This document shows positions 2,013 through 19,664 of a DNA stretch of 21,313 nucleotides, piece after piece. The notes under the pieces were generated by a model. It had not been told where the DNA came from and made no database searches. It was given only the letters and a program-made list of their open reading frames with translations. Positions within the stretch are counted from its first letter, which is position 1. Each line of letters starts with the position of its first letter. A program made the position numbers and the translations under genes. The stretch covers positions 1 to 21,313 of the forward strand of contig NZ_LWLG01000023.1 in assembly GCF_001652585.1 (NCBI RefSeq), given 5' to 3'. Source of the DNA: Thermosulfurimonas dismutans (GTDB taxonomy: Bacteria > Desulfobacterota > Thermodesulfobacteria > Thermodesulfobacteriales > Thermodesulfobacteriaceae).

Positions 2013-2189
2013 GCTCTTTCGAGCTTTTGGCAATGCGACTTTTTATAGGCTGAGGGTAGAGATAATACTTTATTTTATTCATTTTATTCCTTTTGTTAGT
2101 GCGTTAGTTAGGATCTTAGTGGATTCATGTTGGTGAAAGGATTTTTATCTCTAGGTTAGAAGGTATCCAAGTATGTTAGGGTATTACAT

Positions 2190-3587: not shown

Positions 3588-3774
3588 AGAGAGAATAAGG
3601 GATAAGAAAACCGAAAACAGAAGAGAATGGATGGGAATAGTAATGAAATAAGCATGAATTTTTCGTTAAGGGGTGCTCATTGAAGGATGGAGAGCTTTGC
3701 GTTATGTTTAATCGTACTTTAAATAAGTTCGGTTCCAAAAGTTGGGGTGGAGTAGGCGTTTTTGAGGTTGCTGA

Positions 3775-5085
3775 GTGTTAGGTGGAAGGATAAAAGAGTT
3801 TCTCAAAGACAGGGAGAAAAAACAACTTTGTGAAAACTTTATATCTCTTTCGTTGCTTCAGGGAGCGAATTATATACTTCCTTTAGTTATTTTACCGTAT
3901 TTAGTTAGGGTGTTGGGTCCAGAAAAGTTTGGTCTCATAGCTTTTGCTCGATCCTTTGTGCAGTATTTCAATATCTTAACGGATTATGGCTTTAATCTTT
4001 CTGCTACCCGAGAGATCTCGATATATCGGGAAAGCAAGGAGCGAATCTCTGAAATATTCAGTGCTGTACTGACTATTAAATTGGTTCTATTAATCTTTTC
4101 TCTTGTAATATTGACTATTATTGTTTTTGGTTTTCAAAAATTTCGAAAAGATTGGGAAATATATTACTTTAGTTTTGGAATAGTAGTGGGGCAAGTTTTA
4201 TTTCCTGTATGGTTTTTTCAGGGGATGGAAAGGATGAAGTATATTACAATTTTGAATGTTATTGCCAAATTGATTTTTGCTGTTTCTATTTTTGTTTTTG
4301 TTCGTGAAGTTTCGGATTATATTTATGTGCCGCTGATAAATTCTTTAGGTTTTATAGTTGCAGGTATATTGGCATTATGGATTGCTTTTAAGGATTTTGA
4401 TATTTACTTTAAAGTTCCTAATTTAATGGTAATAAAACGTCAAATAGAAGAGGGATGGCATATTTTTATGTCTACAGTTTCTTATAACTTATACACTAAT
4501 TCTCCTAAGTTTTTTATTGGAATATTGATAAACAATAAATCTGTTGCTTTTTTCTCACTGGCTGAAAAAGTAGTTAATATTTTAAGGCAGTTGATTAATA
4601 TTATCTTTCAAGTTTTTTATCCATATTTAGCAAGGATGTTTAAAGAAAGTTTTAAAACTTACACAAAAGAATGGTTTAGATTATTTAGAATTTCAACAGG
4701 AATAAGCATGTTATTATGTGCTTTTGTTGTTTTCATACCAAAAAGCATGTTTTTGTTTGTATTTTCGGAAAGTTTCTTGCCTTCGTTATCTATGCTAAAG
4801 CTATTGGTTTTATCTTTACCTTTGCAATGTTTTATGAATCTGTTCGGAATGCAATCTATGTTGATATTGGGATTTGTCAGAGCTTATGGATTTTCCTATG
4901 TGTTCTTTTCCATTTTATTTTTGGTTATTTTACCTATAATATTATGGTTTTCAAAAAGTGTTTTTTTATTAATAGGATTAATTTTAGTTACGGAATTTAT
5001 GATAATAATTTATAGAATTTTTTATTTATATAAAAAAGGAATTTTATATGCGTTATTTAGATACTCAGCATATAGTAGAAAATAA
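3775..5085 (+). CDS. wzx: Wzx-like polysaccharide/O-unit flippase (MOP superfamily)
   Basis: GTG start. The N-terminal pattern LLQGANYILPLVILPYLVRVLGPEKFGLIAFARSFVQYFNILTDYGFNLSATREIS is typical of RfbX/Wzx proteins. The protein is highly hydrophobic and multi-spanning across its 436 aa. Confidence 0.8.
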   Translation: MLGGRIKEFLKDREKKQLCENFISLSLLQGANYILPLVILPYLVRVLGPEKFGLIAFARSFVQYFNILTDYGFNLSATREISIYRESKERISEIFSAVLTIKLVLLIFSLVILTIIVFGFQKFRKDWEIYYFSFGIVVGQVLFPVWFFQGMERMKYITILNVIAKLIFAVSIFVFVREVSDYIYVPLINSLGFIVAGILALWIAFKDFDIYFKVPNLMVIKRQIEEGWHIFMSTVSYNLYTNSPKFFIGILINNKSVAFFSLAEKVVNILRQLINIIFQVFYPYLARMFKESFKTYTKEWFRLFRISTGISMLLCAFVVFIPKSMFLFVFSESFLPSLSMLKLLVLSLPLQCFMNLFGMQSMLILGFVRAYGFSYVFFSILFLVILPIILWFSKSVFLLIGLILVTEFMIIIYRIFYLYKKGILYALFRYSAYSRK

Positions 5086-6289
5086 TTGGGAAAAGTTAGC
5101 AATGAATAGACGTTATGAGTATTTACACTTTCGAATAAACCAATTACTTAATTCTATTGTTAATCTGAATGTTTTAGATAGGGGATCAAAAGTATTAATC
5201 AATTCCATAAGGGATAAAAGCAAACTTAAAGTTTCATTGTCAAGTGTCAATTACTTAAAGAATCTATTAAAGATACTTAATCGGATAACTGGTAAAAATT
5301 ATAGCCTTAGTTATAACATTTTGTATCTTAAAAATTACATAGAGTTTTTTCTAAAAATCCACAACATAATACTAAACTATCTTCATGAATATGTAAAAAC
5401 AAGACCATATTTAGTACAGGCTAAACAATATGACAACACATTTTATGCTTACCCTCAGCTTATAGAAGTGCGCAACTTCTATAAGAAAGTTTCGAGAATA
5501 GAAGGATTGAAAGAAGTATTTATTCAGGGAAGTCTGTCTACCCTTGACTATAACAAATTTAGTGATTTTGATACTTTTATAATCATAAGTAAAGAAGCAG
5601 AAGAAGATGTAGATCTTTTTATAGATACTATTTTTAAACTATTTAGAGCATCTCGCTATTTTTACAAGTTTGATCCTTATCAGCACCATAGATATTTTGC
5701 GTGTCTTGAGTCTGATTTATATGCGTACAACCAAGCATGTCTCCCAACGAAAGTTTTAGATTATGCTACATCCATAAAAAATTCAGAGGAATTATTCTTT
5801 CAAGTATATGACTCAAGGTTGTCACACGTTATTTTCCTCACGAATGTCTTAAACTATTTTGTAATTCATCACGAAGAAAGTTTTAAAAGAATAGCTAATC
5901 TATGGAATCTTAAATATTTTGTAGCTACAGTGTTATTTATTCCTGTTCTCTTTTTAGAGGTAATTAATATTTATGTATACAAAAGGGATTCTTTTTCGAT
6001 AATAAAACAATTTTTATCAATAGATTTACAAAATTATATTGATAGATGTAGCTACTTGCGTCAAATATGGAATTATAAACTAACAACCAAAGAAAATCTC
6101 TTTAGAAAGCTATTTTTAGATATATACTTAAATCCTATATTATATGAGTATGTAATGCAGAAATATAGTCAGAAGATTAATAGAAAAGAATTCAACTATA
6201 TATTTTCGGGAAGTATTCCTTATACTCAGTTTTTCTACGATGAAGTTAGAAAAATTTATAAGAAAGATTTTAACATAGATGTTGAATAA
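5048..6289 (+). CDS. Uncharacterised protein with a Pol-beta-type nucleotidyltransferase-fold motif
   Basis: G161-S-x10-D173-F-D175 (GSLSTLDYNKFSDFDTFIII, nt 5528-5572) matches the hG[GS]-x(9-13)-D-h-[DE]-h minimal NTase signature. The remainder is predicted to be helical and lysine/tyrosine-rich. An alternative start at ATG 5102 would avoid the 38-nt overlap with wzx. Confidence 0.5.
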   Translation: MRYLDTQHIVENNWEKLAMNRRYEYLHFRINQLLNSIVNLNVLDRGSKVLINSIRDKSKLKVSLSSVNYLKNLLKILNRITGKNYSLSYNILYLKNYIEFFLKIHNIILNYLHEYVKTRPYLVQAKQYDNTFYAYPQLIEVRNFYKKVSRIEGLKEVFIQGSLSTLDYNKFSDFDTFIIISKEAEEDVDLFIDTIFKLFRASRYFYKFDPYQHHRYFACLESDLYAYNQACLPTKVLDYATSIKNSEELFFQVYDSRLSHVIFLTNVLNYFVIHHEESFKRIANLWNLKYFVATVLFIPVLFLEVINIYVYKRDSFSIIKQFLSIDLQNYIDRCSYLRQIWNYKLTTKENLFRKLFLDIYLNPILYEYVMQKYSQKINRKEFNYIFSGSIPYTQFFYDEVRKIYKKDFNIDVE

Positions 6290-7346
6290 ACAACAGATTA
6301 TCAATGATCTAAAGAAATTAGATATGGATGACTATAGAAAGATAATAATAGAGTTTGTTGACGAGTTTAAATATCCTAAGATAACATTATATAGTTTTGG
6401 TAATTTAAAGCATCCCTCCATTTCTGATTTAGATCTTGTAATAGTGTATGATGATCGTCTGGATGATAGTTTTGTTGCAAAAATTGTAGAGAAAGCAAAA
6501 AAATTTGTTGTGTCCAATGAGGTTAAGAAATACGTTTTTACTCATGACATTTTAATCTATCCAAAGAGTATTTTTAGGAAGATAAAATTTTTGCATACTT
6601 TTCAAAACATGAAGCTACTCTGTGGTAAGGAGGTTGACATACTTGTTCCATCGGAAGAAGAGCAGAGCATAGTAGATAAAGTCCATTTTATAAACTTTAC
6701 ATATAATGCTCTTTTTTGGTTAAAAGGCATTAGATTACAAAAAAAAGTTTACTTAAGACAAACTTTACTCACTTTAAATTCTGTTAGACATAGTTTTGTT
6801 TTTTTAAAAAAAATTTATCAAGATTCAAATTTAATCAAATGGATAGATATTTTAGGAGAAGTTAGGCAAGATTATAGTCTTATTTACAAAATATCCTTTC
6901 ATGAGTTGGAAGAAATTTTTTTTGAATATTTACAAAAATTTTTAGCAAGATTTTTGAGAAAATGGATAGATTTTTCCAACTTAGATAAATTAATTAACAA
7001 AAAAATATTAGTATTACACGGAAGAAGAATGATTGCAGTTCCTAGTTTAAGCATTATACATGGAGCGTCTTATTGTAAATGTTGTCCTGAAAATAAACAA
7101 TCAATATATTGGAAGATACATCGATCCTTATATCCTATAAATAACTTTACTATTAAAGATAGAAATTATAAAGGTGTTTTGCGTCATCAGATGGAAGCTG
7201 CTATGGAATTCGAAGTGTTATATAGGAAATTCCGAATAAAACCTCTTATTCCACTTATGTGCAATTACTGTACGCCGGTGATGACTAAAAAACAAAAAAT
7301 AAGATCATTATTGAATAGCTTTGTAGTAAAAATACAGTTATTATAA
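6279..7346 (+). CDS. Uncharacterised protein with an NTase-fold-like motif and a C-terminal Cys cluster
   Basis: The motif is G41-N-x7-D50-L-D52 (FGNLKHPSISDLDLVIVYDD, nt 6399-6434), with a downstream acidic THD at residues 88-90. The C-terminal cysteines are C266-x-C268-C269 and C328-x2-C331. The gene overlaps the previous one by 11 nt, suggesting translational coupling. Confidence 0.45.
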   Translation: MLNKQQIINDLKKLDMDDYRKIIIEFVDEFKYPKITLYSFGNLKHPSISDLDLVIVYDDRLDDSFVAKIVEKAKKFVVSNEVKKYVFTHDILIYPKSIFRKIKFLHTFQNMKLLCGKEVDILVPSEEEQSIVDKVHFINFTYNALFWLKGIRLQKKVYLRQTLLTLNSVRHSFVFLKKIYQDSNLIKWIDILGEVRQDYSLIYKISFHELEEIFFEYLQKFLARFLRKWIDFSNLDKLINKKILVLHGRRMIAVPSLSIIHGASYCKCCPENKQSIYWKIHRSLYPINNFTIKDRNYKGVLRHQMEAAMEFEVLYRKFRIKPLIPLMCNYCTPVMTKKQKIRSLLNSFVVKIQLL

Positions 7347-7358
7347 GAAGGTGTTTTA

Positions 7359-8507
7359 GTGTTTAACTACATAATAGTTGGTTCAGGATTTGCAGGATCG
7401 GTAATAGCCGAAAGAATAGCAAATGTTTTAAACAAAAAAGTTTTGGTAATAGAAAAAAGAAGTCATATAGGTGGAAACTGTTATGACTATAGAAATAAAG
7501 ACGGGATAATTATTCATAAATACGGCCCTCATTTATTCCACACAAATTACAAAGAAGTTTTTGATTATCTTTCTAACTTTACAGATTGGCGAATATATTA
7601 CCATAAAGTTTTAGCTTTTATTGATGGAAAAAAGGTTCCAATTCCCTTTAATTTCAATTCTATGGATATACTATTCCCTGAAATTTTATCAAAAAAATTA
7701 CAAGAAAAACTTCTAAAAAAATATCCTTATGGTGCAAAGGTTCCGATTTTAAAGTTAAAAAAGGAAAATGATAAAGATTTAAAATTTCTGGCAGATTTTG
7801 TATATGAAAAAATTTTTAAAAATTACACAATAAAACAGTGGGGAAAGAGACCTGAAGAAATAGATTCAGAAGTTACTGCAAGAGTTCCTGTTTGTATTGG
7901 GAGGGATGATAGATACTTTGATGATAAATATCAAGCGTTACCAGAAGAAGGCTATACTAAAATCTTTGAAAGAATGCTTTCTCATCCAAACATAAAGCTC
8001 ATGTTGAATACGGATTTTAAGGAAATAATGAAAGTAGATTTAAAAGGTAAGAAAATCTACTTCTTGGGGCAAGAGTTTAAAGGAAAGGTAATATTTACGG
8101 GCATGATAGATGAATTATTTGCTTACAAATTTGGAATGTTACCTTATCGCTCTTTAGATCTTCATCTTGAAGTAATCGAAAAAGAATATTTTCAAGAAGT
8201 GGCTGTAGTGAATTATCCCAACGATTATGATTTCACAAGGATAACGGAATTTAAACACATACATCCTATCAAGACCAATAGGACCGTCATTCTTAAAGAG
8301 TACCCGAAAGATTATGATCCAGAGCGAGACATTCCCTATTATCCATTTTTCGATAAAGCAGCCCGGGAGGTCTATGCTAAATATCAGGAACTTGCCGAGA
8401 GATTTGACCATCTTATTCTTGTAGGACGATTAGCAGAATACAGGTATTATGATATGGATGATGTAATCAAAAGGAGTTTAGAAGTATTTGAAGAAAGGAT
8501 CAGATAA
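7359..8507 (+). CDS. glf: UDP-galactopyranose mutase
   Basis: GTG start. The FAD-binding N-terminus reads YIIVGSGFAGSVIAERIA...VLVIEKRSHIGGNCYD...IHKYGPHLFHTN. The C-terminus has ITEFKH...YYPF...GRLAEYRYYDMDDVI. The protein is collinear with E. coli Glf along its whole length. Confidence 0.93.
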   Translation: MFNYIIVGSGFAGSVIAERIANVLNKKVLVIEKRSHIGGNCYDYRNKDGIIIHKYGPHLFHTNYKEVFDYLSNFTDWRIYYHKVLAFIDGKKVPIPFNFNSMDILFPEILSKKLQEKLLKKYPYGAKVPILKLKKENDKDLKFLADFVYEKIFKNYTIKQWGKRPEEIDSEVTARVPVCIGRDDRYFDDKYQALPEEGYTKIFERMLSHPNIKLMLNTDFKEIMKVDLKGKKIYFLGQEFKGKVIFTGMIDELFAYKFGMLPYRSLDLHLEVIEKEYFQEVAVVNYPNDYDFTRITEFKHIHPIKTNRTVILKEYPKDYDPERDIPYYPFFDKAAREVYAKYQELAERFDHLILVGRLAEYRYYDMDDVIKRSLEVFEERIR

Positions 8508-8510
8508 AAG

Positions 8511-9473
8511 ATGAGCAGCGTAAAAGATACTGTTTGTGCGGTAGTGGTTACTTACAACCGTAAGGGTTTGCTTATTGAATGTCTAGAGGCTTTGTGCAAA
8601 CAGACCAGGCCGGTACAGGGAATTTATTTAATAGACAATGCTTCTACGGATGGTACCCCTGACTTGCTTCTGGAGAAGGGGTATATAAAAGAATTACCTC
8701 CTGAGAATTTGTTAGAGCCCTGGGAGAAAGAATTCGAGATAAAAAACTTAACTGATGAGCAGCATATAAAATTCTACTATGTTCGAATGCATGAAAATAC
8801 CGGTGGTGCTGGTGGTTTTCATGAGGGTGTAAAAAGGGCTTATGAAAAGGGATATGATTGGTTGTGGTTAATGGATGATGATGTTGAGCCCTTGCCAAAG
8901 GCGTTGGAGACTCAATTGTCATATGCAGAGATTTCTAAATGTATTCATCCGTCTAGAAAATATGTAGATGGCAATAGAGTTTTGTGGGAGGTGTATTTGG
9001 ATCCTAAAAGTTCTAAAGAGATTTTTTTGAAAGACAGATCTTTTAAAGAAAAAAAATTAAATTATTGTTTAGTAAATGTTGGATGTTTCGAAGGGATGTT
9101 GATCCATCGAGATATTGTTGCTAGGATAGGTTATCCTGATAAAAGCTTTTTTATTTCAAAAGATGATACTATTTATGGTTTTTTGGCAAGTAAATTTACG
9201 AAGAATATTTATATTAGAGATATATGTTTTATTAAAAAGGTTAAAAAATTAAATAAACTTTCCGGGAAATCTTTATATTATTTTGTCAGGAATAGGTTTA
9301 TTTTATGTTTATATTTAAAAAGAGAAGGATATTTCACTTGCAAGTCTTATTTTTGGGTTTTTTATAAGATTTTCAGAATGTTGGTGTTTAATTTTGTAAA
9401 ACTAGATTTAAAGAGTTGTTATTTTATCTTGAAAGGTTTGTCTAACGGTTTGAAATTTGTTTCAAAATCTTGA
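8511..9473 (+). CDS. GT2-family glycosyltransferase (candidate galactofuranosyltransferase by context)
   Basis: VVVTYNRKGLLIECLEALCKQT...IYLIDNASTDGT and WLWLMDDDVEP (DxD) are GT-A/GT2 hallmarks. The gene starts 3 nt after the glf stop. The acceptor and donor assignment is inferred from adjacency only. Confidence 0.8.
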   Translation: MSSVKDTVCAVVVTYNRKGLLIECLEALCKQTRPVQGIYLIDNASTDGTPDLLLEKGYIKELPPENLLEPWEKEFEIKNLTDEQHIKFYYVRMHENTGGAGGFHEGVKRAYEKGYDWLWLMDDDVEPLPKALETQLSYAEISKCIHPSRKYVDGNRVLWEVYLDPKSSKEIFLKDRSFKEKKLNYCLVNVGCFEGMLIHRDIVARIGYPDKSFFISKDDTIYGFLASKFTKNIYIRDICFIKKVKKLNKLSGKSLYYFVRNRFILCLYLKREGYFTCKSYFWVFYKIFRMLVFNFVKLDLKSCYFILKGLSNGLKFVSKS

Positions 9474-9500
9474 GTTTTTATTTTATAAAGTGCTTTAAAA

Positions 9501-10718
9501 ATGCTTTCCAAAATAGCTGTTGTAATTTCTAGTTTGATATTAATTTTATTATCTTTTTATCCGTTAGCTTTCATAAGATTTTATATTGTCATTAGGACAC
9601 TTTTTCAGCCTTTTGCGAATAAGCATTTGACATTGTTTGGGAATTTTCCTATTAATGCCCCATTGCCTTTAATTTTGTTGTTTTATTCGTATTTGGCGTG
9701 TATTTTTAGGCAAGATTTTTCTTTATTTGTTCCTAATTCTGTATATCTTTATTTGTTCCTTTTTTGGAGTCTGCTTTCTTTGATAAATTCTTTTAATTTA
9801 TACGCTTCATTTGCTTTCATTTTTAAAATCTTAGCTGTAATTTCCGTTTACTTATTAATTTATAATTCAATAGAATCCGCTGAAGATTTCAAGAAGATTC
9901 ATAAGACAGTAGTGTTTTTAGCCTTAATAACTATATTCTATGGTTTTTGTCAAATTTTTTTAAAAGAAGGACAACCATTCTATGGACCTATAGTAAGAAT
10001 TAAAAGTTTTTTTTCTAGTGCCAATGAATTTGGTATTTTTCTTTCTTTAGCAATAATTTCAAATTTAATATTAGTAGCCATAGAAGGATTTAAAAAACAA
10101 TATAAGATTTTCTTAAGCTTAATGATATTAGCCTATATTTTGGCTTTAAATCGTGGATCGTGGATAGCTATGACTACTTCTATATTTTTGTCATATTTCT
10201 TTTTTAGGGATAAAATAAGATTAAGAAGTATTGTTTTACCTATTGCTATAATTTTTTTAATGTTTTCTCCAATTATAATATTGCGATTTCTTCAATTGGA
10301 AAATCCTGCAGAAAATACCTTTGTAGGCCGTATAAATTTCTGGAAAAATATGCTATATTTAATACCGCAACATCCTCTTTTAGGCTTTGGAATTGGAACT
10401 ACTGAGTTAGTATTTCAGTCTCTAACTGGACGAAAAATATATCCTCACAATGATTTTTTAAGATTATTTTTTGAAATGGGATTCGGGAGTATTTTTTATA
10501 TCCTCTTTTTAATTAAATCTTTATTGTTTTTTATTAAAAATAAAGCTAATAACTGGAAAACAAACTTTTTGTTTATTGTATCCCTTTTTTATTGGCTAAT
10601 TATTAGCATTCCCCAAAATATTGTTAATAATGTAGTATTATTTCCTTTATTTATGACTTTAATTGCTTCAGGATTAAAATATAACTTTTTAATAAATTTT
10701 GAGGGAAAACATATATAA
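9501..10718 (+). CDS. wzy: Wzy_C/O-antigen-ligase-family polytopic membrane protein (probable polymerase)
   Basis: It has about 10-12 hydrophobic segments. LNRGSWIAMTTSIF and the periplasmic-loop motif YPHNDFLRLFFEMGFGS are characteristic of the Wzy_C / WaaL family. Polymerase and ligase cannot be told apart from sequence, and the wzy call rests on pairing with wzx. Confidence 0.7.
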   Translation: MLSKIAVVISSLILILLSFYPLAFIRFYIVIRTLFQPFANKHLTLFGNFPINAPLPLILLFYSYLACIFRQDFSLFVPNSVYLYLFLFWSLLSLINSFNLYASFAFIFKILAVISVYLLIYNSIESAEDFKKIHKTVVFLALITIFYGFCQIFLKEGQPFYGPIVRIKSFFSSANEFGIFLSLAIISNLILVAIEGFKKQYKIFLSLMILAYILALNRGSWIAMTTSIFLSYFFFRDKIRLRSIVLPIAIIFLMFSPIIILRFLQLENPAENTFVGRINFWKNMLYLIPQHPLLGFGIGTTELVFQSLTGRKIYPHNDFLRLFFEMGFGSIFYILFLIKSLLFFIKNKANNWKTNFLFIVSLFYWLIISIPQNIVNNVVLFPLFMTLIASGLKYNFLINFEGKHI

Positions 10719-10724
10719 ATTACT

Positions 10725-11828
10725 ATGATTGAATGTAAACTTTATTATTTTTATAGTCCTCATTTAATACAAATCTATGAAGGATTTTATCGTTTAGCAA
10801 AAAAGAGACTCATTAAGTTGAAAATTGAAAAAATAAAAGGCGATCCACAAAAACCTATTTTAGAAGTAATTATTGATAATAAATACAAAGTTATTTATGA
10901 TACATTAGATGGCTTTAATTGGATTGAAGCTTCTGTAGAAGAAAACCTTGAGTTTTTTAAAAAAAGATTTGTAAATGTGGATTATTACTTTAAAAGAAGT
11001 TTTTCAAAAATTTTATATAAATATGCCCCGTCTAATTGTAAGATTTATCCTTTAGGTTTGAATTTTTCTTTTGATCCATCTTATTTTGTGTTGGAATGGA
11101 AATATTTAGTTAAGAATATAGTCCAAAAAGTATGGCCAATTTTTTATAAAATTCAATCGATTTCTATTATTAAGAACAAATTTCCTAAATTAGGTTATAT
11201 TTCTGAAAAATTGCTATTAGAAAATTTTGAGTTTCCACCTATTAGTACACAAAATAAAGTGTTATTTATAACTCGATTATTTGATCCTATGAAGTTCCCT
11301 TTATGTTATAGAGAAGAAGTAGAAAAATTAAATGAAACCAGAATTTTAATAATTAGATCTTGCAAAAAAGAGCTTAAAAATATATTTACTGGTGGATTGT
11401 ATGAAGATGAATATTCTTTAAAAGTTGCTAAAAATTTAACAATATCTAGAAATATTACAAGAAGATCTAATTTTGTTAAGTTAATTAAATTACATAATAT
11501 TTGTATATCTACAACAGGATTACATAAATCTATTGGATGGAAATTTGTAGAATATGTTGCTGCATCTAGAGCTATAATTACAGAACCTCTTTTTTATCAA
11601 TTACCCGGAAATTTTAAGGTGGACAAGAATTATTTAGAATTTAGAAATATAGATGAATTATTAGAGAATATTTATACTCTTTTAAGAGATCAAGGAAAGA
11701 TCAAAGATATAATGCGAGCTAATTTTTATTATTATAATATGTATGTTAAACCCGAAAATTTAGTTTTAAATACACTATTAAAAATAAAGAATTTTTTAGG
11801 AAAAAATGATAATATTTATAGTGGGTAA
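10725..11828 (+). CDS. Putative GT-B-like glycosyltransferase (CgeB / Glyco_trans_1_2-like C-terminal half)
   Basis: The C-terminal stretch ICISTTGLHKSIGWKFVEYVAASRAIITEPL...NYLEFRNIDELLENIYTLLRD resembles the C-terminal nucleotide-sugar-binding half of CgeB-like GT-B enzymes. The N-terminal half is unrecognised. Confidence 0.4.
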   Translation: MIECKLYYFYSPHLIQIYEGFYRLAKKRLIKLKIEKIKGDPQKPILEVIIDNKYKVIYDTLDGFNWIEASVEENLEFFKKRFVNVDYYFKRSFSKILYKYAPSNCKIYPLGLNFSFDPSYFVLEWKYLVKNIVQKVWPIFYKIQSISIIKNKFPKLGYISEKLLLENFEFPPISTQNKVLFITRLFDPMKFPLCYREEVEKLNETRILIIRSCKKELKNIFTGGLYEDEYSLKVAKNLTISRNITRRSNFVKLIKLHNICISTTGLHKSIGWKFVEYVAASRAIITEPLFYQLPGNFKVDKNYLEFRNIDELLENIYTLLRDQGKIKDIMRANFYYYNMYVKPENLVLNTLLKIKNFLGKNDNIYSG

Positions 11829-12816
11829 TAGTAGAAGTGGTACTACTTTAATGGCCGAGATTTTAAATAAGCATCCTTTGATTTATTCTTTTAATGAATT
11901 ACATTTTTTTGAAATGCTATACGATCCTAATGATAACTCAATTAACGATAAAAAAATTTTGAACATGCTGACAAAATTATATTGGTCTCATAAAGGTAGT
12001 GATTGGGTTAAATGTAATATAGATGATTGTTATAATGATGCTTTGTTGTTATATAATAAACTTTGTTTTGAAAATAAAATTGAACATCCAATAGAAATAT
12101 ATAAAAATTTTTTGTATATTGAAACACAAAAAATGGGAAAACTTTTCCCTTGTGAGCAAACGCCACGTAACTTATTTTATTTAAAAGAAATTTTACAGTA
12201 CTTTTCTGATTCGAAGATTATATATATGATTCGAGATCCTAGAGCAGTATTAGCTTCACAAAAAAACAAATGGAAAATGAAATTTTTAGGACATAGTAAT
12301 ATGCCTCTGAGAGAAGCTATACGTTCTTGGATAAATTATCATCCTTATACAATAAGTAAGCTTTGGAATTCAGCTTCCAAGGCTATTAAGCCTTTTTTAT
12401 CTCATCCAAACGTTTTAGTAGTAAAATTTGAAGAATTGGTAAATGATCCTTACAGAACAATTAAAAAGACGTGTGATTTTCTGGAAGTAGAATTTTATAA
12501 TGAAATGTTGGATGTTCAGTTGGCCGGATCTTCTGTCTATAAAAAGGGTAAAAAAGGTTTCAGAAAAGAGGTAATAAGTGCTTGGAAAAATAAAGGATTA
12601 AATAAAACTGAAATATATATATGCCAAGAAGTTAATAAAAAAGAGATGGAATTCTGGGGATATGATTTTGAAAAAGTTAGTCCAAACTATTTATTTTTTG
12701 TTTATTATTTGATAACTTTTCCTATTAAAACATCTATGGCATTAATCTTTAATTTAAGAAGGTCAAAAAATATTTTTAATGCAATGAAAAGGCGCTTAGT
12801 AAGTTTAGAGAATTAA
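11806..12816 (+). CDS. PAPS-dependent sulfotransferase
   Basis: IIFIVGNSRSGTTLMAEILNKHP corresponds to the 5'-phosphosulfate-binding loop. IIYMIRDPRAVLAS corresponds to the 3'-phosphate-binding motif of the sulfotransferase fold. The gene overlaps the previous one by 23 nt. Confidence 0.8.
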   Translation: MIIFIVGNSRSGTTLMAEILNKHPLIYSFNELHFFEMLYDPNDNSINDKKILNMLTKLYWSHKGSDWVKCNIDDCYNDALLLYNKLCFENKIEHPIEIYKNFLYIETQKMGKLFPCEQTPRNLFYLKEILQYFSDSKIIYMIRDPRAVLASQKNKWKMKFLGHSNMPLREAIRSWINYHPYTISKLWNSASKAIKPFLSHPNVLVVKFEELVNDPYRTIKKTCDFLEVEFYNEMLDVQLAGSSVYKKGKKGFRKEVISAWKNKGLNKTEIYICQEVNKKEMEFWGYDFEKVSPNYLFFVYYLITFPIKTSMALIFNLRRSKNIFNAMKRRLVSLEN

Positions 12817-12819
12817 ATA

Positions 12820-14025
12820 ATGGAAATTCTTATAGCAAACAAATTTTTTTATCTTAAAGGCGGTTCAGAACGAGTTCTTTTTCAAGAAAGAGAGTTCTTG
12901 TTGAATAATAAGATTAAAGTAATAGATTTTTCTATGAAAGATTCCAGAAATTTTTCTTCTGAATATTCATCTTATTTTGTCTCCTATATTGACTATTACA
13001 CCACAAATAGATTTCTTATTAAATTAAAAAACGCTTTCAAATTTATTCATTCTCCAGAGGCGGTTCGAAAAATTAAATTTTTAATTCAAAAGGAAAAGCC
13101 GGATATTGCCCATCTGCATAACATTTACCACCAGTTGACACCTTCCATCATTCATCCTCTCAAGGAACAAGGGGTGAAAGTGATTCTAACCCTGCACGAC
13201 GGGAAGCTCATCTGCCCTACCTACCTTATGCTTGACCGGAAAATAAAGCTCTGCCTTGAGTGCCAGGGAAAGTATTTTTACAAACCGTTTCTCAAAAACT
13301 GTGCTGGCTCACGCTTCAAGGGGCTTCTTTTGATGGTGGAAGCTTACTGGCATAAGTTCTTTAAATCCTATGACAAGGTGGACCTTTTTATTGCTCCCAG
13401 TCGGTTTTTGGCAGAAGTGGTCTCGCAACGGATTCCGCGGGAGAAAATCGTAGTTCTTCGCAACGGGATAGACCTTAACGAATACCGGCCTACCTATGAG
13501 GATGGTGGATACGCCCTTTACTTCGGAAGGCTTTCCCGGGAGAAAGGCGTGGAGACCCTACTTGAGGCTCACCAGGAAGTGGCCAAAGAGATCCCCCTCA
13601 AAATAGTTGGGACCGGGCCGATGGAAGCCGAGCTTAAGGCGAAATATCCGGAGGCGGAGTTTTTGGGTTATCGGACAGGGGAGGAGCTCAAGTCGCTTGT
13701 GGCCCGGGCTTCCTTTGTGGTGGTGCCCTCGGAATGTTACGAAAACTGTCCTATGACTGTGCTTGAGGCCATGGCATTGGGGAAACCCATTATTGCAAGC
13801 CGCATCGGGGGGCTTCCGGAGCTCGTGGAGGAGGGTAAAACGGGGCTTCTTTTCGAGATGGGGAATGTGGAGGAATTAAAAGAAAAGATGCTTTTTCTGT
13901 GGAAGAACAAGGATCTTCGGCGGGAGATGGGGCGAGCTGCGCGGCAAAAGGCGGAGCGGGAATTTTCCCTCGAGAAACACTGCGAGGAACTCCTGCGAAT
14001 ATACCGAAGGCTTCTTGAGAGTTAG
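12820..14025 (+). CDS. GT4-family (GT-B, retaining) glycosyltransferase
   Basis: GRLSREKGVETLLEA...IVGTGPMEAEL...VVVPSECYENCPMTVLEAMALGKPIIASRIGGLPELVEEGKTGLLF includes the E-x7-E motif. The nucleotide composition switches from AT-rich to GC-rich at about nt 13090, inside the ORF. Confidence 0.9.
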   Translation: MEILIANKFFYLKGGSERVLFQEREFLLNNKIKVIDFSMKDSRNFSSEYSSYFVSYIDYYTTNRFLIKLKNAFKFIHSPEAVRKIKFLIQKEKPDIAHLHNIYHQLTPSIIHPLKEQGVKVILTLHDGKLICPTYLMLDRKIKLCLECQGKYFYKPFLKNCAGSRFKGLLLMVEAYWHKFFKSYDKVDLFIAPSRFLAEVVSQRIPREKIVVLRNGIDLNEYRPTYEDGGYALYFGRLSREKGVETLLEAHQEVAKEIPLKIVGTGPMEAELKAKYPEAEFLGYRTGEELKSLVARASFVVVPSECYENCPMTVLEAMALGKPIIASRIGGLPELVEEGKTGLLFEMGNVEELKEKMLFLWKNKDLRREMGRAARQKAEREFSLEKHCEELLRIYRRLLES

Positions 14026-14032
14026 GTGATCG

Positions 14033-16114
14033 ATGAGAATTTTTTGGCTCCTTGTTTTGCTGTGCTTTTTTTCGGTTTCTCCCTTGCTAGCGCAACCTGC
14101 GGCTGAAATTACCATCAACTTTGAGGAAGTGGAGAGGGTTAATCCCTACATTTTCGGCCAGGGAATATTGGGTTTCGATCCCTGTAAAACGCGAAGGAAA
14201 AACCGAAAGTTTTGTGTAAACGACGGAAGATTTACCAATTTCGGAGCCGGAGTCTGGGACCCACTTTTGAGAAGGCCAAACGCGGTTCTGGTAGACCTTG
14301 CCAAAAGAATAAAAGTTTCTGTTTTGCGTTTTCCCGGAGGGTGCGGTACCCATCATTACGACTGGAAAAGGGCCATCGGGCCGGTTGAAAAGCGGCCCAT
14401 GTACAGATTCGGCATAGACGAGTTCATGGAGCTCTGTCAGGCTGTAGGAGCTAAACCTATTATTGTTTTGAGTTATTTCACCGGGACCTGCCAGAACCTA
14501 GCGGATCTGGTGGAGTATCTCAATGCTCCCCTCGGGACCAACCCCAACGGCGGGGTGGCCTGGGCGGAGGTGCGGGCCGCCAATGGGCACCCGGAGCCTT
14601 ATGGGGTGAGATGGTTTGAATTTGGGAACGAAGTGTGGCATGGGGATCATAGGAAAATTTCCGCTGTAGATCCAAGAGAATATGGAGAACGGTATCTTGA
14701 ATGTCAAAAGTTAATTAAAAACATTGATCCTAAGATTAAACTCGGAGCAGTAATGAGAAGAAGTTTATATGGATTAGGCTGGTGGAGTCGAACTGTTCTT
14801 TCTGTAATTAAAGAAAATGTCGATTTCGTAATTTTTCATATCTATCCTCCTGGTTATCGATCTGATAGAAATGAAATATCTACTAATGAACTTTTTAAAA
14901 TAGCTTTGGCTGCTCCTGAGCAAATTAGCGATTCTCTTTTTAGGATCTCTAAACAATTAAAAGAAATTACTAGGAGAGAGATTCCGATTGCTATTACCGA
15001 ATATAATGGTGGTTTTGTGCAAAATAAGCCGGTACCATACAGGCATTCTCTAGGAAATGCTCTTCTAATTGCGGATCTTTTAAGAGTATTTTTGACGGCA
15101 AATACGCCTATTTTGTGCGCTAATTATCACCATTTTTCTAATTCTTATTGGGGATTAGTTTATAATCCTCGATATTTGAAATTAAGGGATAGATATTATA
15201 TGAGACCTAATTATTATGTATTTGAATTGTATGCCAATCATTTTGGAGATATTTTATTAAAAACTAAAGTGAAATCAAAAAGTTATTTTCAATCTGGCTA
15301 TAAAAACATTTTACCTTCTATAAAAACTAAAAAAGTATCCTCTCAAAATTTAAATTTTTCAGAGATCTATAAAGAAAAAGTTTTGAGAATTGATTTTAAA
15401 TGGCTTCCTCCGTGTGTTAAAGTAAAAAAATATTCTGATTATTCGGTAATTCATTTTGATTGCGAAAAACGTAATAAGTTAGGAATATATTTTATTGATA
15501 AAATTCAAAATGTTAAACCTAATTGGTTATATTTTTGGGAAACCGAAATAAAAACAAACTTGGCAAAAGCATGGTTTTTTATAGCAATTAAAGATCAAAG
15601 GTATAGACGTATTAAACATTCAAAGATTTTATGGGGAAATACAGAGTGGATAAAAACCGGCTTTGATTTTAAGACTCCCGATAATATTAAAATTTTAAAT
15701 CTGCTGTTTTTTATCAAAGGAAAAGAAAATAAAGGAATTAAGGGAACAGTCTATATTAAAAATATGAAAATTGGGGAACTTGGCTCGGCCCCGCAATACG
15801 GGCCGACGCCATATATTTCGGCCTTGGCGAGCACCAACGAGAAGAGGAACCGAATCTACCTCATGGTGATCAACAAAAACCTGGAAGAACCTATGAGGAC
15901 GCGGATAAAAATAAATGGCTTTCCCTCTGGTCCCGTGGTTCGGGCCTGGGTGCTGAACGGGCCTTCGGTGACCGCCACCAATGAAAATCGGCAAGAAAGG
16001 GTTAAAATCCATTACCAAGAGGTGGAGGTGGATCCGGGGAAAGAATACTTTTGGTTTACCTTCGAGCCGCATTCGGTAACGGCCTTAGAGTTAACACGTA
16101 GGGAGGGAACTTGA
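14033..16114 (+). CDS. Secreted GH51-like glycoside hydrolase (alpha-L-arabinofuranosidase family) with an internal extra module
   Basis: The signal peptide is MRIFWLLVLLCFFSVSPLLA|QP. Blocks collinear with GH51 AbfA are LRFPGGCGTHHYDWKRAIGPVEKRP, FGIDEFMELCQAVGAKPIIV, DLVEYLN and WFEFGNEVW (acid/base Glu in GNE). Further blocks are VDFVIFHIY, IAITEYN (candidate nucleophile) and a C-terminal beta-sandwich ending FEPHSVTALEL. About 175 extra residues (roughly aa 410-585) lie between the barrel and the C-terminal domain. Confidence 0.75.
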   Translation: MRIFWLLVLLCFFSVSPLLAQPAAEITINFEEVERVNPYIFGQGILGFDPCKTRRKNRKFCVNDGRFTNFGAGVWDPLLRRPNAVLVDLAKRIKVSVLRFPGGCGTHHYDWKRAIGPVEKRPMYRFGIDEFMELCQAVGAKPIIVLSYFTGTCQNLADLVEYLNAPLGTNPNGGVAWAEVRAANGHPEPYGVRWFEFGNEVWHGDHRKISAVDPREYGERYLECQKLIKNIDPKIKLGAVMRRSLYGLGWWSRTVLSVIKENVDFVIFHIYPPGYRSDRNEISTNELFKIALAAPEQISDSLFRISKQLKEITRREIPIAITEYNGGFVQNKPVPYRHSLGNALLIADLLRVFLTANTPILCANYHHFSNSYWGLVYNPRYLKLRDRYYMRPNYYVFELYANHFGDILLKTKVKSKSYFQSGYKNILPSIKTKKVSSQNLNFSEIYKEKVLRIDFKWLPPCVKVKKYSDYSVIHFDCEKRNKLGIYFIDKIQNVKPNWLYFWETEIKTNLAKAWFFIAIKDQRYRRIKHSKILWGNTEWIKTGFDFKTPDNIKILNLLFFIKGKENKGIKGTVYIKNMKIGELGSAPQYGPTPYISALASTNEKRNRIYLMVINKNLEEPMRTRIKINGFPSGPVVRAWVLNGPSVTATNENRQERVKIHYQEVEVDPGKEYFWFTFEPHSVTALELTRREGT

Positions 16115-17520
16115 AGGAAACCTGCCTCGAGTTTCTTCGGAATCAAAAGATAACCTCCTCACACCTCAGGGAAACCATTTGCTTCCAGGGAAAGAAGCTA
16201 CCGAAGAGATTTTTTTATGAGGAACTGCAGAGGTATTTAAGCGAATTTTTCAAATCCGGCCGGGGGATAAGGATGGTGGCCCTGGCCGGACTGCGGGGAA
16301 CCGGAAAGACCACCCTCCTCTGGCAACTGGCGGACTATCTCCTTCGAAACTTCAAGGAAAAAGCCGAAGGCTTCTTTATAAGCCTTGATGTGGCCTACAG
16401 TTACGGTTTTTCGGAAAAAGATCTTATCGAAGGATTGCAAAAAATATACGAAGATTTGAAGTCTCAAAGGAAAACACTGGTGCTCTTTCTCGACGAGGTG
16501 CAATATCTCCACAACTGGCCTCTGATGCTAAAAGTGCTCTATGACAAGTTCAAAGACTGTTTTATTTTCGTAAGCGGAAGCTCTGCCCTGTATCTTCACT
16601 CTACGGTAGATCTGGCCACCCGGTGGATCCTGAGATCCCTTCTTCCTTTGAGTTTTCGCGAGTTTCTAATGATAAAGGCCTTCCTAGAATCTGGCTTTGA
16701 AGTTCCTTCCTTTTCCCGAGCGGAGGAGCTCAGGAAGACACTTTTCTTCTCCGAATCGCTTGAGGAGTTAAAGGAAGGCCTGAAACTAGTAGAAAAAGAG
16801 GCGCAGGAGTTTTATAAAGAAGATCTTCCCTGGCAGGGGCTCATTCGGGAATACATATTATTTCTCAATCTCCCCCGTTTTATACCGGTGGAGGAGGAGA
16901 AGGTTCTGGCTGATCAGACCTTCGACATGCTTCAAAGAGTAGTCTATCAGGATCTCCGGAATTTTTATCCGGAAAGCGAGGTGGTGAGTGTCTTCAAGCT
17001 GCTTTCTCAGCTAGCGGCTAGCGACGAAATAAACCCGGAGAGGCTTTCGCAGGACTTAGGGGTTTCAAGAAAGCGGATAGAACGAATAATAAAAAGCTTG
17101 ATAGAAGCGGAGGTTTTACTGGCCTCTCCTCCCTACGGAGGAACCAAAACCAGAGTTGCCCGGCACAGAAAAGTCTTTTTCCTTTCTCCAACCCTTAGAT
17201 ACGGAATCCTTAGGCAGATTTTTGCGGACGTTCGGCCTTTCTTTTCCAAGTTTCTGGAGGATACCGTGGCCCTTTATCTAAGACGACTCCTTAAGAACGG
17301 AATGTATTATCTACCTACCGAGACACAAAAGACCCCGGATTTTGTGGTGGAAACCGCTCTTGCACCCGTGGTTTTGGAAGTGGGAACCGCTAAAAGGGAT
17401 GTTTCCCAACTCAAGCTTAAAAATATGCGTTACGGTATTCTCCTGAATTTTGATCTGGAGGTGCCGGAATTCAAGGATAAAGTAGTTATCTTTCCTTTCA
17501 AGTGGTTTTTGCTTATGTAG
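16111..17520 (+). CDS. AAA_14 / DUF4143-family ATPase with a C-terminal winged-helix-like segment
   Basis: The TTG start overlaps the GH stop codon by 4 nt. Walker A is LAGLRGTGKTTLL and Walker B is LVLFLDEVQYLHNWPLMLKVLYD, the typical AAA_14 pattern. An HTH-like segment LSQDLGVSRKRIERIIKSLIEAEVL lies in the C-terminal half. Confidence 0.8.
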   Translation: MKETCLEFLRNQKITSSHLRETICFQGKKLPKRFFYEELQRYLSEFFKSGRGIRMVALAGLRGTGKTTLLWQLADYLLRNFKEKAEGFFISLDVAYSYGFSEKDLIEGLQKIYEDLKSQRKTLVLFLDEVQYLHNWPLMLKVLYDKFKDCFIFVSGSSALYLHSTVDLATRWILRSLLPLSFREFLMIKAFLESGFEVPSFSRAEELRKTLFFSESLEELKEGLKLVEKEAQEFYKEDLPWQGLIREYILFLNLPRFIPVEEEKVLADQTFDMLQRVVYQDLRNFYPESEVVSVFKLLSQLAASDEINPERLSQDLGVSRKRIERIIKSLIEAEVLLASPPYGGTKTRVARHRKVFFLSPTLRYGILRQIFADVRPFFSKFLEDTVALYLRRLLKNGMYYLPTETQKTPDFVVETALAPVVLEVGTAKRDVSQLKLKNMRYGILLNFDLEVPEFKDKVVIFPFKWFLLM

Positions 17521-17544
17521 ATTTTTACCTTAATTTTTACCTTA
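17521..17544. repeat. Perfect 12-bp tandem direct repeat (ATTTTTACCTTA x2) between the ATPase and rSAM genes
   Basis: Read directly from the sequence: 17521-17532 equals 17533-17544. It starts immediately after the ATPase stop codon and ends 16 nt before the rSAM ATG. Confidence 0.9.
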
Positions 17545-17560
17545 ACATAGGGGGGTGAGG

Positions 17561-18538
17561 ATGGAGGCGGCTATTATTTTGACCTACCGCTGTATCTGCA
17601 AATGCTACATGTGTAACATCTGGAAATATCCCACAAAACCCTCGGAGGAAATAAAACCCGAGGTGCTGGAGAAGCTTCCGGACAATCTGGCCTTCGTGAA
17701 CCTCACCGGGGGCGAGCCCTTTTTGCGGGAAGACATAGAAGACATTGTGGACATTGTGATGCGCAAGTCTAAAAGAGTAGTCATAAGCACCAACGGGTGG
17801 TTTACGGAAAAGATCGTAAATATTGCCAAGAAGTATCCCCGAATAGGTATAAGAGTGAGTCTTGAGGGGCTTCCGGCGGCCAACGATGAGCTACGGGGTA
17901 TAAAAGACGGCTTTGATCACGGCCTGCGGACGCTCCTTGAGCTTCAGCGCATGGGCCTTAAGGACATCGGCTTCGGCATCACGGTCTCCGACCGGAACGC
18001 CAAAGACATGATAGAACTTTACCAGCTTGCCAAAAGTCTGGGGTTTGAATTTGCCACTGCGGTTACGCACAATTCCTATTATTTTCATAAACACGATAAT
18101 GTTTTCAAAGATCAAAGAATGATCGAAGACTGCTTCCGGGAATTGATAAATGAACTGCTCTGTACAAAGAGGGTGAAGAACTGGTTTCGAGCCTACTTCA
18201 ATTACGGGCTTATCCGAAGAGTGAGAGGTCAACCGCGACTTCTTCCTTGTGAGGCCGGGACGGAGAATTTCTTCGTAACCCCTTTTGGGGAAGTGGTTCC
18301 CTGCAACGGTTCTCCAGAACCGTGGGTCATGGGTAATCTGAAACGCCAATCCTGGGATGAGATCTGGAACGGTGAGCAGGCCCAAAAGGTTAGAGAAAAG
18401 GTCAAAAACTGTGATAGGCAGTGCTGGATGATAGGGACCGCCGCCCCGGTGATGAAGAAATATATATGGAAGCCTCTAAAATGGGTGGTAAGGAACAAAC
18501 TGCGGGTGATGATGGGAAAGGAGCCCTGTTTGGACTGA
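17561..18538 (+). CDS. Radical SAM enzyme with a SPASM/twitch-like C-terminal Cys domain
   Basis: The tracked ORF starts at GTG 17555. The ATG at 17561 is preferred because GGGGGTGAGG lies immediately upstream. The rSAM cluster motif is C11-x3-C15-x2-C18 (YRCICKCYMCNIW), followed by GGEPFL. The C-terminal pattern is LPCEAGTENFFVTPFGEVVPCNG...CDRQCW (SPASM-like C-x-A-G ... G-x-V-x-P-C). Confidence 0.85.
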   Translation: MEAAIILTYRCICKCYMCNIWKYPTKPSEEIKPEVLEKLPDNLAFVNLTGGEPFLREDIEDIVDIVMRKSKRVVISTNGWFTEKIVNIAKKYPRIGIRVSLEGLPAANDELRGIKDGFDHGLRTLLELQRMGLKDIGFGITVSDRNAKDMIELYQLAKSLGFEFATAVTHNSYYFHKHDNVFKDQRMIEDCFRELINELLCTKRVKNWFRAYFNYGLIRRVRGQPRLLPCEAGTENFFVTPFGEVVPCNGSPEPWVMGNLKRQSWDEIWNGEQAQKVREKVKNCDRQCWMIGTAAPVMKKYIWKPLKWVVRNKLRVMMGKEPCLD

Positions 18539-18542
18539 TTCC

Positions 18543-19664
18543 ATGAGAATCGTCGTATGCGGAACGAGGGGATTCCCCGGTGTTCAGGGAGGGGTGGAGA
18601 AACATTGCCAAGAACTTTACCCCAGGCTGGTAAAGCTCGGGTGCGAGGTTCTGGTCTTCACTCGCACGCCATATATCTCCAGGGACAACCGTCTTTTCGA
18701 ATGGCGCGGAGTAAAGTTCCACCATTTGTGGTGTCCGCGGAAAAAATCCCTTGAGGCCATAACGCATACCTTGTTTGCCGTCTCTTTGGCGCGGAGATTT
18801 AAGCCGGATATCCTCCATATTCACGCCATCGGTCCGTGTCTGGTCGTACCTCTGGCGCGGGCTCTTGGGTTCAAGGTGGTGATGACCCACCACGGGCCGG
18901 ACTACGAACGGGCCAAGTGGGGGCGCCTGGCCAAAAGGGCACTTAAGCAGGGCGAAAGCTGGGGCGTGAGGTACAGCCACCGGGTGATCGTCATCTCCCG
19001 GGGCATTCAGGAACATGTGAGAAGGCTTTACGGGCGGGAGGCCGTGTTCATCCCCAACGGGGTGCACATTCCGGAGGCCGTTCCTCCTGGAGAAGGGCTT
19101 TCGCGATGGGGACTTGAGCCCGGAAGCTATGTCTTTACCGCCTGCCGCTTCGTGCCGGAAAAGGGCCTCCACGATTTGATAGAGGCCTATCGGCGGCTCA
19201 AAAATCCGCCTTTTAAACTTGTGATTGCCGGGGATGCGGACCACGAGACTCCTTACAGCCGGAATATAAAAGAGCTGGCCGCTCGGACCCCGGGCGTGGT
19301 GCTCACGGGTTTTGTTTCCGGAAGGCCTCTTGCCGAACTTTTTTCAAACGCCGGACTCTTTGTGCTTCCCTCTTATTACGAAGGGCTTCCCATCGCCCTT
19401 CTTGAGGCTCTGAGTTACGGGCTTCCGGTGCTGGTAAGCGATATTCCTCAACATCGGGAGCTCCCTCTGCCCGACTTTCGCTATTTTCCGAAAGGAGACG
19501 TGGAGCGCCTGGCCCGGGCCATGAAAGATCTTTTCCACCGGGGCATTTCGCCCGAGGAGCGCAAGAAATATTTCGACCTCCTCCAGCGGGACTACAACTG
19601 GGACCACGTAGCCGAGCGCACGCTCGGGGTGTATCGGGAGGCCCAAGACTTTCGCACTTCGTAA
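18543..19664 (+). CDS. GT4-family (GT-B) glycosyltransferase
   Basis: RFVPEKGLHDLIEAY...LVIAGDADHE...GLFVLPSYYEGLPIALLEALSYGLPVLVSDIPQHRE includes the E-x7-E motif. The gene starts 4 nt after the rSAM stop. Confidence 0.9.
   Translation: MRIVVCGTRGFPGVQGGVEKHCQELYPRLVKLGCEVLVFTRTPYISRDNRLFEWRGVKFHHLWCPRKKSLEAITHTLFAVSLARRFKPDILHIHAIGPCLVVPLARALGFKVVMTHHGPDYERAKWGRLAKRALKQGESWGVRYSHRVIVISRGIQEHVRRLYGREAVFIPNGVHIPEAVPPGEGLSRWGLEPGSYVFTACRFVPEKGLHDLIEAYRRLKNPPFKLVIAGDADHETPYSRNIKELAARTPGVVLTGFVSGRPLAELFSNAGLFVLPSYYEGLPIALLEALSYGLPVLVSDIPQHRELPLPDFRYFPKGDVERLARAMKDLFHRGISPEERKKYFDLLQRDYNWDHVAERTLGVYREAQDFRTS

Follow-up and report, generated by a model that had tools for sequence, protein, structure and literature searches.

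The window considered here, i.e., the whole stretch of DNA that was analysed (21,313 bp; contig NZ_LWLG01000023.1 of Thermosulfurimonas dismutans), harbours at positions 11806-12816 an open reading frame (ORF) which, as judged from its sequence and its structural model, is an intact sulfotransferase of the type depending on 3'-phosphoadenosine 5'-phosphosulfate (PAPS), and apparently a catalytically intact one. This gene, hereafter ST, is embedded in a polysaccharide locus of the Wzx/Wzy type, while cysC, encoding an intact adenosine 5'-phosphosulfate (APS) kinase, lies some 10 kb upstream. Taken together, it is considered likely that ST is a PAPS-dependent O-sulfotransferase sulfating the repeat unit of the Wzx/Wzy polysaccharide, with PAPS originating from the cysC product.

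In a preliminary description of this DNA, ST was singled out by two PAPS-binding motifs, namely GNSRSGTT and IRDPRAVLAS. Both are present, the former at aa 7-14 as the 5'-phosphosulfate-binding (5'-PSB) loop with the core R10-S11-G12-T13-T14, the latter at aa 142-151 as the 3'-phosphate-binding (3'-PB) motif, and they are not chance matches, since the protein scores far above the Pfam cut-offs for Sulfotransfer_3 (PF13469; E 1.6e-26, 94.4 bits against 27) and Sulfotransfer_1 (PF00685; E 2.3e-18, 67 bits against 22). When ST is aligned with 22 homologues of 40-72% identity (23 sequences in total), S9-T14 in the PSB loop, E31/H33 and R143-D-P-R146...S151 are invariant. The N-terminal 35 residues align residue by residue with the sulfotransferase domains of CurM and OLS, where the PSB loop corresponds to SPRSGST of CurM and E31/H33 to the ELH motif of both; the Glu of this motif is said to be the catalytic base in CurM, for which a literature search gave no confirmation. 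The AlphaFold2 (AF2) model of ST (pLDDT 86, pTM 0.87) retrieved 63 matches at E <= 1e-3 in a Foldseek comparison with the Protein Data Bank (PDB), of which the top 50 are all PAPS-fold sulfotransferase-family proteins. The best of them are the OLS sulfotransferase (4gox), the tyrosylprotein sulfotransferases TPST1/2, the CurM sulfotransferase (4gbm), the mycobacterial Stf9 and heparan-sulfate 3-O-sulfotransferases. The closest solved structures remain distant relatives (sequence E 1e-8, Foldseek E 2e-10, TMt 0.57-0.63, 18-20% identity).

At its C-terminus, ST carries a conserved pair of helices (aa 295-335, window 12520-12813), first hydrophobic (hydropathy segment 296-314) then basic, in which N316, R319 and R330 are invariant and which is absent from the 275-283-residue structures of the CurM and OLS sulfotransferase domains. 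This helix pair is probably a membrane anchor, which would hold the enzyme where lipid-linked intermediates are made. As for the N-terminus, the ATG at 11806 is preceded at 4 nt by a ribosome-binding site (AGGA) and gives a protein of 336 aa, whereas a call in a public protein collection (P0001) starts at Met16 and yields 321 aa deprived of the PSB loop. Because homologues align from residue 2 onwards, the ATG at 11806 is the correct start and the Met16 call is too short; with the latter, automated annotation would make ST look defective. Regarding its name, the only NCBIfam model touched by ST is NoeE (E 7e-8), with a score so far under the cut-off (31.5 bits against 500) that ST is not a member of this family. 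The designations "Stf3-like" or "omega-hydroxy-beta-dihydromenaquinone-9 sulfotransferase" are automatic names of the Joint Genome Institute (JGI) borne by some homologues only, and the database searches of this analysis found no named or curated characterised member of the subfamily.

The genes surrounding ST are as follows, where GT stands for glycosyltransferase, GH for glycoside hydrolase, SAM for S-adenosylmethionine and Galf for galactofuranose:

12-374, + strand: C-terminal fragment of an IS5 transposase (NCBIfam)
367-990, + strand: protein with a PEP-CTERM (VPLPA-CTERM) sorting signal (TIGR03370, 26.9 bits against a cut-off of 25.35), directly 5' of cysC
1131-1739, + strand: CysC, stand-alone APS kinase (PF01583, E 3.5e-64; NF003013, 275 bits against a cut-off of 163; TIGR00455, 241 bits against 139)
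2190-3587, + strand: ManC, bifunctional mannose-1-phosphate guanylyltransferase / mannose-6-phosphate isomerase, for GDP-mannose supply (TIGR01479, 578 bits)
3775-5085, + strand: Wzx-type flippase opening the low-GC cassette (PF01943, E 8.9e-67; about 10 or more hydrophobic segments; GC 0.288)
5048-6289 and 6279-7346, + strand: two adjoining proteins with weak signals of the NTP_transf_2 nucleotidyltransferase fold (PF01909, E 3.8e-4 and 0.044)
7359-8507, + strand: Glf, UDP-galactopyranose mutase, for UDP-Galf supply (TIGR00031, 493 bits against a cut-off of 304)
8511-9473, + strand: GT2 glycosyltransferase, GlfT1-like, candidate galactofuranosyltransferase (PF00535, E 3.6e-21; NF050113 GlfT1, 73 bits, below cut-off)
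9501-10718, + strand: Wzy-type polymerase with Wzy_C (PF04932, E 2.6e-13) and about 10 transmembrane segments (hydropathy)
10725-11828, + strand: glycosyltransferase-like protein of GT-B fold with no significant Pfam match (AF2 and Foldseek)
11806-12816, + strand: ST, PAPS-type sulfotransferase, 336 aa, ATG start (Pfam, motifs, AF2, Foldseek)
12820-14025, + strand: GT4 glycosyltransferase (GT4a), first gene of the higher-GC part (PF00534, E 1.7e-33)
14033-16114, + strand: secreted GH51-like (alpha-L-arabinofuranosidase-like) protein with an N-terminal signal peptide (PF06964, PF22848; NF051901, 122 bits, below cut-off)
16111-17520, + strand: AAA_14/DUF4143 ATPase (Pfam), overlapping the GH51-like gene by 4 nt
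17555-18538, + strand: radical SAM/SPASM enzyme (PF04055, PF13186)
18543-19664, + strand: second GT4 glycosyltransferase (GT4b), last gene of the cluster (PF00534, PF13439)
19820-20038 and 20039-20449, + strand: VapBC toxin-antitoxin pair, i.e., VapB (AbrB/SpoVT-like) and VapC (PIN)

Every substantial ORF of the window is thus carried by the + strand and, from manC to GT4b (2190-19664), the genes form one strand-uniform Wzx/Wzy-type heteropolysaccharide locus, either for an exopolysaccharide (EPS) or O-antigen-like, in which the intergenic distances from wzx to GT4b range from -38 to +34 nt. The Wzx/Wzy machinery announced in the preliminary description is therefore there, as are the other elements of gene order it put forward, i.e., cysC before manC at about 10 kb from ST, an overlap of 23 nt between ST and its upstream neighbour, and the position of ST between glycosyltransferase genes. 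From wzx through ST (3775-12816), GC values lie between 23 and 32%, most flanking genes being at 45-58% (cysC 52%, manC 46%, GT4a 45%, GT4b 58%; the GH51-like gene has 39%), with a step from 46% to about 27% that is sharp at both borders of the cassette. Immediately around ST, its start overlaps the stop region of the upstream ORF, which ends at 11828, suggesting translational coupling, and GT4a starts 3 nt after its end. The upstream protein belongs to a family of 1238 representative homologues for which there is no Pfam model; 13 of 32 members give a weak match to Glyco_trans_1_2, residues such as D62, R91, R206 and E276 are invariant, and a profile of the family found no match among PDB sequences. 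It was fold comparison alone that identified the GT-B fold, the top Foldseek matches of the AF2 model (pLDDT 90) being all GT-B glycosyltransferases (E about 1e-6). With this fold on one side and GT4a on the other, ST does sit between glycosyltransferase genes.

Such a glycan context is found again across the family of ST, which totals 1769 matches at E <= 1e-3 and is confirmed in at least 427 of 185,579 species genomes, spanning the Chitinophagales, Cyanobacteria, Poribacteria, Planctomycetota, Nitrospirota, Acidobacteriota and others. As far as genes are concerned, describing sulfated bacterial glycans as uncommon, as was done initially, is thus overstated. When the 118 genes directly adjoining family members in 62 genome loci were assigned to Pfam families, the counts were 23 for GT4 (Glycos_transf_1), 17 for a further sulfotransferase, 15 for WecG/TagA glycosyltransferases and 2 for APS kinase. 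The closest homologues on long contigs (46-48% identity) reside in loci of the order Wzz-Wzx-ST-GT2-Wzy-GT4-ST-GT4(DUF1972)-WecA-like, where consecutive genes overlap at their start and stop codons and sulfotransferases number up to four; these loci share with the window the micro-order Wzy-GT-ST-GT. Closer still, a locus from another sample (L001) encodes a 71% identical ST in the arrangement Wzy (75%)-ST-acyltransferase-GT4 (84% to GT4a), with the same GC step. On a larger scale, the module Wzy-ST-GT4-radical SAM/SPASM-GT4 recurs in Ca. Kuenenia hertensis (anammox), in a metagenome-assembled genome (MAG) of the Planctomycetota and in "Bacterium BMS3Abin06"; the stretches concerned are 11806-19664 in the window, 8418-17238 in locus L083, 8730-16836 in L037 and 3262-12084 in L029. 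The radical SAM proteins of these three loci are 58-59% identical to that of the window and occupy the same relative position, while the L083 and L037 homologues are about 42% identical to GT4a and 48-50% to GT4b. A large secreted protein accompanies the module, namely a GH51-like protein in the window and in L029, where the homologue is 39% identical and lies beside that of ST, and a BNR/Sortilin-repeat protein in L083 and L037.

The other enzyme on which the reading relies, CysC, retains in its translation the P-loop GLPSSGKS and the motif LDGDN, and the named homologues closest to it belong to Thermodesulfovibrio and the Nitrospirota (69-81% identity). In several of these relatives, cysC adjoins a sulfotransferase gene at a spacing of 1 nt (L004) to a few hundred nt (L015). 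In Thermodesulfovibrio sp. (L004; CysC 74% identical), a Sulfotransfer_1 gene of another subfamily ends 1 nt before cysC, both being inside a Wzx/NeuB/GT locus; a literature search on sulfotransferases in Thermodesulfovibrio gave nothing usable. In two Nitrospirota MAGs (L057 and L015; 66-71% identity), cysC directly precedes an orthologue of the ST of the window, within the locus Glf-GT2-GT2-...-glycerophosphotransferase-cysC-ST-formyltransferase-DUF3473 deacetylase-GT4-GT4. In a broader census, 48 stand-alone cysC genes of metagenomic origin had among their 121 near neighbours 8 Sulfotransfer_3 and 6 Sulfotransfer_1 genes, which makes sulfotransferases as common there as ATP sulfurylase (8-10). 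Three contigs of a sister population (L167-L169; SRR26701689-91) provide a comparison at the site itself. They are 95-97% identical in nucleotides to window positions 1834-3578 (ManC 97% identical), with a weaker stretch of 75% from 1744, 5 nt past the cysC stop, and the homology is lost shortly ahead of the stop codon of manC. On these contigs the order is PEP-CTERM gene, terminator, spacer, manC and gmd (L167 1-870, L168 1482-2024, set against window 840-3587), cysC being absent between the PEP-CTERM gene and manC, and after manC they carry gmd (GDP-mannose 4,6-dehydratase) and a different cassette instead of wzx...ST. On this one comparison, cysC and the ST cassette are both strain-variable and co-occur. 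As a separate observation, cysC of L015 (Nitrospirae MAG SZUA-77, 3527-4041) is in two pieces overlapping on the DNA, the longest ORF counting 114 aa; the sequence may reflect a frameshift, due either to an assembly error or to a pseudogene.

In the mechanism proposed, the repeat unit would be made from GDP-mannose (through ManC), UDP-Galf (through Glf, and used by the GlfT1-like GT2) and other sugars, and would be put together on undecaprenyl phosphate by the GT2 and by three GT-B/GT4 enzymes, namely the GT-B protein, GT4a and GT4b. Probably anchored on the cytoplasmic side of the inner membrane through its C-terminal helix pair, ST would use PAPS to sulfate a hydroxyl group on a sugar of the repeat unit while the latter is linked to undecaprenyl diphosphate; sulfation would precede flipping by Wzx, then polymerisation by Wzy. 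The secreted GH51-like protein may subsequently trim the polymer, a furanosidase activity towards Galf being a guess. As for the sulfate donor, the stand-alone CysC would convert APS into PAPS, and APS would come from an ATP sulfurylase encoded elsewhere, speculatively a dissimilatory Sat if the organism is a Thermodesulfovibrio-like sulfate reducer, at which the affinities of CysC hint.

Several elements weigh against this mechanism, on the side of the polysaccharide as well as on that of the donor. The prediction of a sulfated repeat unit made in the preliminary description holds insofar as an intact ST does lie in a Wzx/Wzy glycan cassette, but it is gene context that designates the repeat unit as the acceptor, and the top structural matches of ST act on acyl-acyl carrier protein (acyl-ACP) or protein tyrosine, not on sugars. 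The Pfam and NCBIfam scans for cys, priming and export genes, which cover the 21.3 kb of the window, found neither a priming phosphoglycosyl transferase nor Wzz/Wzc or Wza, and no sat, cysDN or cysQ; the window is the entire contig, and exact-sequence look-ups of CysC, ST and its shorter call yielded none that is longer. Regarding cysC, its composition differs from that of ST (GC 0.52 vs 0.27, and 0.59 vs 0.21 at third codon positions, GC3), which together with the distance of 10 kb indicates that both genes were not acquired together; the 450-bp gap between cysC and manC contains a promoter-like site, promoter and terminator counts over 900-4000 being at the level of shuffled sequence; and ManC is only about 60% identical to proteins of Aquificota/Thermodesulfobacteriota, a taxonomic signal different from that of CysC (Nitrospirota). 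Moreover, the closest CysC of all (81%, L005, a short contig) adjoins genes for an aldehyde dehydrogenase and an amidohydrolase, with no glycan genes, and an APS kinase lies within 10 kb in only 5 of 80 genome loci of the ST family, the remaining 75 implying that the enzymes of this family normally use a distal PAPS source. Distance, composition, promoter-like site, unrelated neighbours of the closest CysC and the 75 loci would all suit another view, where ST does sulfate the polysaccharide and cysC is a housekeeping source of PAPS, for assimilation or for all sulfation, found beside the locus by accident; so would the metagenomic census, in which related cysC genes have ATP sulfurylase and CysN as their most frequent neighbours. 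This is possible although on balance unlikely. The preliminary description had proposed looking for sat, cysDN and cysH, and in the window no cysD, cysN, cysH or sat adjoins cysC, the scans being also negative for cysH over the whole 21.3 kb. In addition, cysC is missing at this site in a population with a 97% identical ManC, an uncommon situation for a gene of core assimilation, and its 66-74% identical orthologues in L004, L057 and L015 adjoin sulfotransferase genes. To call the kinase dedicated, as was done initially, is as such in agreement with its stand-alone nature, with the sulfotransferase adjacency in these three relatives and with its absence from the sister population, but not with its distance of 10 kb, its different GC and the 450-bp gap. 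A much stronger form of dedication can be formulated, where, in an anaerobic lineage that is possibly sulfate-reducing and Thermodesulfovibrionia-like, cysC would be a strain-variable accessory gene diverting APS from the dissimilatory sulfate pathway into PAPS solely for EPS sulfation, and where the Wzy-ST-GT4-radical SAM/SPASM-GT4 module shared with Ca. Kuenenia would build a sulfated, radical-SAM-modified matrix polymer, as a possible genetic basis of the sulfated glycoconjugates that chemical measurements have revealed in anaerobic granules; this is decidedly unlikely.

Two further views concern ST itself. Its acceptor could be something other than the repeat unit: ST could act, like Stf3, on a lipid or an isoprenoid quinone, or else on a glycolipid, on a small metabolite or on a tyrosine in a secreted PEP-CTERM protein, for which there is a gene nearby. 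The automatic quinone-sulfotransferase name given by the JGI to some homologues points in that direction, as do the best sequence and fold matches with CurM and OLS (acyl-ACP) and with tyrosylprotein sulfotransferases, and a hydrophobic C-terminal helix would suit a lipid acceptor too. Nonetheless, ST overlaps one glycosyltransferase gene and abuts another, the neighbours of the family are mostly glycosyltransferases, Wzx/Wzy and further sulfotransferases in several phyla, and no polyketide synthase, menaquinone or peptide-maturation genes are adjacent, which makes a non-glycan acceptor very unlikely. It would be more improbable still that the low-GC cassette (3775-12816) is a recent serotype import, poorly expressed or decaying, in which ST has no phenotypic effect. 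The abrupt change in GC between 46% and about 27% on either side of the cassette, the IS5 fragment at 12-374 and an AAA_14/DUF4143 ATPase gene inserted in the conserved part could be so interpreted, but the ORFs of the cassette are all intact with tight or overlapping junctions, the catalytic and binding residues of ST are conserved, and the 71-84% identical Wzy-ST-...-GT4 segment of L001, with the same GC step, indicates that the arrangement is maintained. Besides, Wzx/Wzy loci typically have a low GC in their central variable part. Sulfation of the Wzx/Wzy repeat unit by ST, with PAPS from CysC, hence remains the preferred reading.

Among characterised systems, the rhizobial enzymes NodH, NoeE, LpsS and KpsS carry out PAPS-dependent O-sulfation of glycans with a dedicated extra PAPS synthesis (nodPQ). 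The latter comprises both ATP sulfurylase and APS kinase, whereas the window encodes the kinase only. At the level of the protein, ST resembles CurM/OLS and tyrosylprotein sulfotransferases (PDB 4gbm, 4gox, 3ap1, 5wrj) by its PRSGST-type PSB loop and its ELH motif after strand 2; unlike ST, these enzymes have beta-hydroxyacyl-ACP or peptide-tyrosine acceptors and are devoid of C-terminal hydrophobic helices and of a glycan locus. At the level of the locus, the co-occurrence of PAPS genes and a sulfotransferase in a polysaccharide cluster is regarded as a hallmark of sulfated polysaccharide synthesis (PMC11641403). The capsule clusters of Vibrio sp. KMM 8419 and Cobetia marina KMM 1449 contain extra cysC/cysDN genes with sulfotransferases, plus cysQ in Cobetia, and the polymers are chemically sulfated (PMC11641403, PMC11766843). 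They have in common with the window a sulfotransferase among glycosyltransferases, sugar-nucleotide genes (for GDP-mannose in Cobetia) and a PAPS-synthesis gene. They differ by export through an ABC transporter (Kps) and by a full cysDN(C) set with or without cysQ, where the window, known from its genes, has Wzx/Wzy and cysC only, at 10 kb from ST. In Synechocystis sp. PCC 6803, the xss cluster for synechan, a Wzx/Wzy EPS, includes two sulfotransferases (XssA and XssE) among glycosyltransferases, and sulfation is proposed to occur at the stage of the cytoplasmic lipid-linked repeat unit (PMC8205485). The window is alike in having a Wzx/Wzy locus with a sulfotransferase among glycosyltransferases, but the xss cluster has no PAPS gene where the window has cysC, and the regulators XssQRS are absent from the window. 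A tblastn search of ST against 72,556 plasmids (E <= 1e-3) returned only distant sulfotransferases of 22-26% identity and no Synechocystis record, with no check that this collection includes pSYSM, the plasmid carrying xssA/xssE.

The logic of the locus is therefore already published and widespread, the differences being of membership and not of kind, and the current understanding of glycan sulfation is unchanged by it. It is of value chiefly for annotating a sulfotransferase family that is widespread, and because cysC and the ST cassette vary together at the level of strains. If true, the reading would assign a function to a family present in hundreds of species and, if chemically confirmed, it would add a Wzx/Wzy sulfated polysaccharide from a probably anaerobic lineage to a short list of bacterial examples with a genetic definition, comprising synechan, the Vibrio and Cobetia capsules and the rhizobial glycans. 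Sulfated glycoconjugates also occur in granular sludge and biofilms, where the responsible genes were not found using a few reference sulfotransferases (PMC10483923); the reading, if true, would help find them.

The remaining genes of the locus may bear on other aspects of the polymer. The two ORFs following wzx (5048-6289 and 6279-7346) overlap, show GS...DxD-like motifs in their translations and could encode transferases adding phospho-substituents or nucleotidyl groups to the glycan. The GH51-like protein is a candidate polymer-trimming hydrolase and, speculatively, a galactofuranosidase, the locus also encoding Glf and a GlfT1-like GT2. No homologue of the AAA_14/DUF4143 ATPase was found in the related loci compared, including L029, L037 and L083; its gene, flanked by those for the GH51-like and radical SAM proteins, seems to have been inserted into the conserved module. 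The radical SAM/SPASM enzyme was considered as an anaerobic sulfatase-maturating enzyme, a reading that found no support, no model of this kind being among the best 25 of 53 NCBIfam matches, all of which are far below cut-off. Concerning the PEP-CTERM protein, it has an additional PepA-like match below the cut-off of that model; no exosortase was found in the window, and GT4a reaches 99 bits with TIGR03088 (stp2), for which the cut-off is 409. Scans of the window with Rfam and for tRNA genes came out empty. Finally, with the IS5 fragment at the left end and VapBC directly after the cluster, the locus is bracketed by mobile or addiction-type elements.

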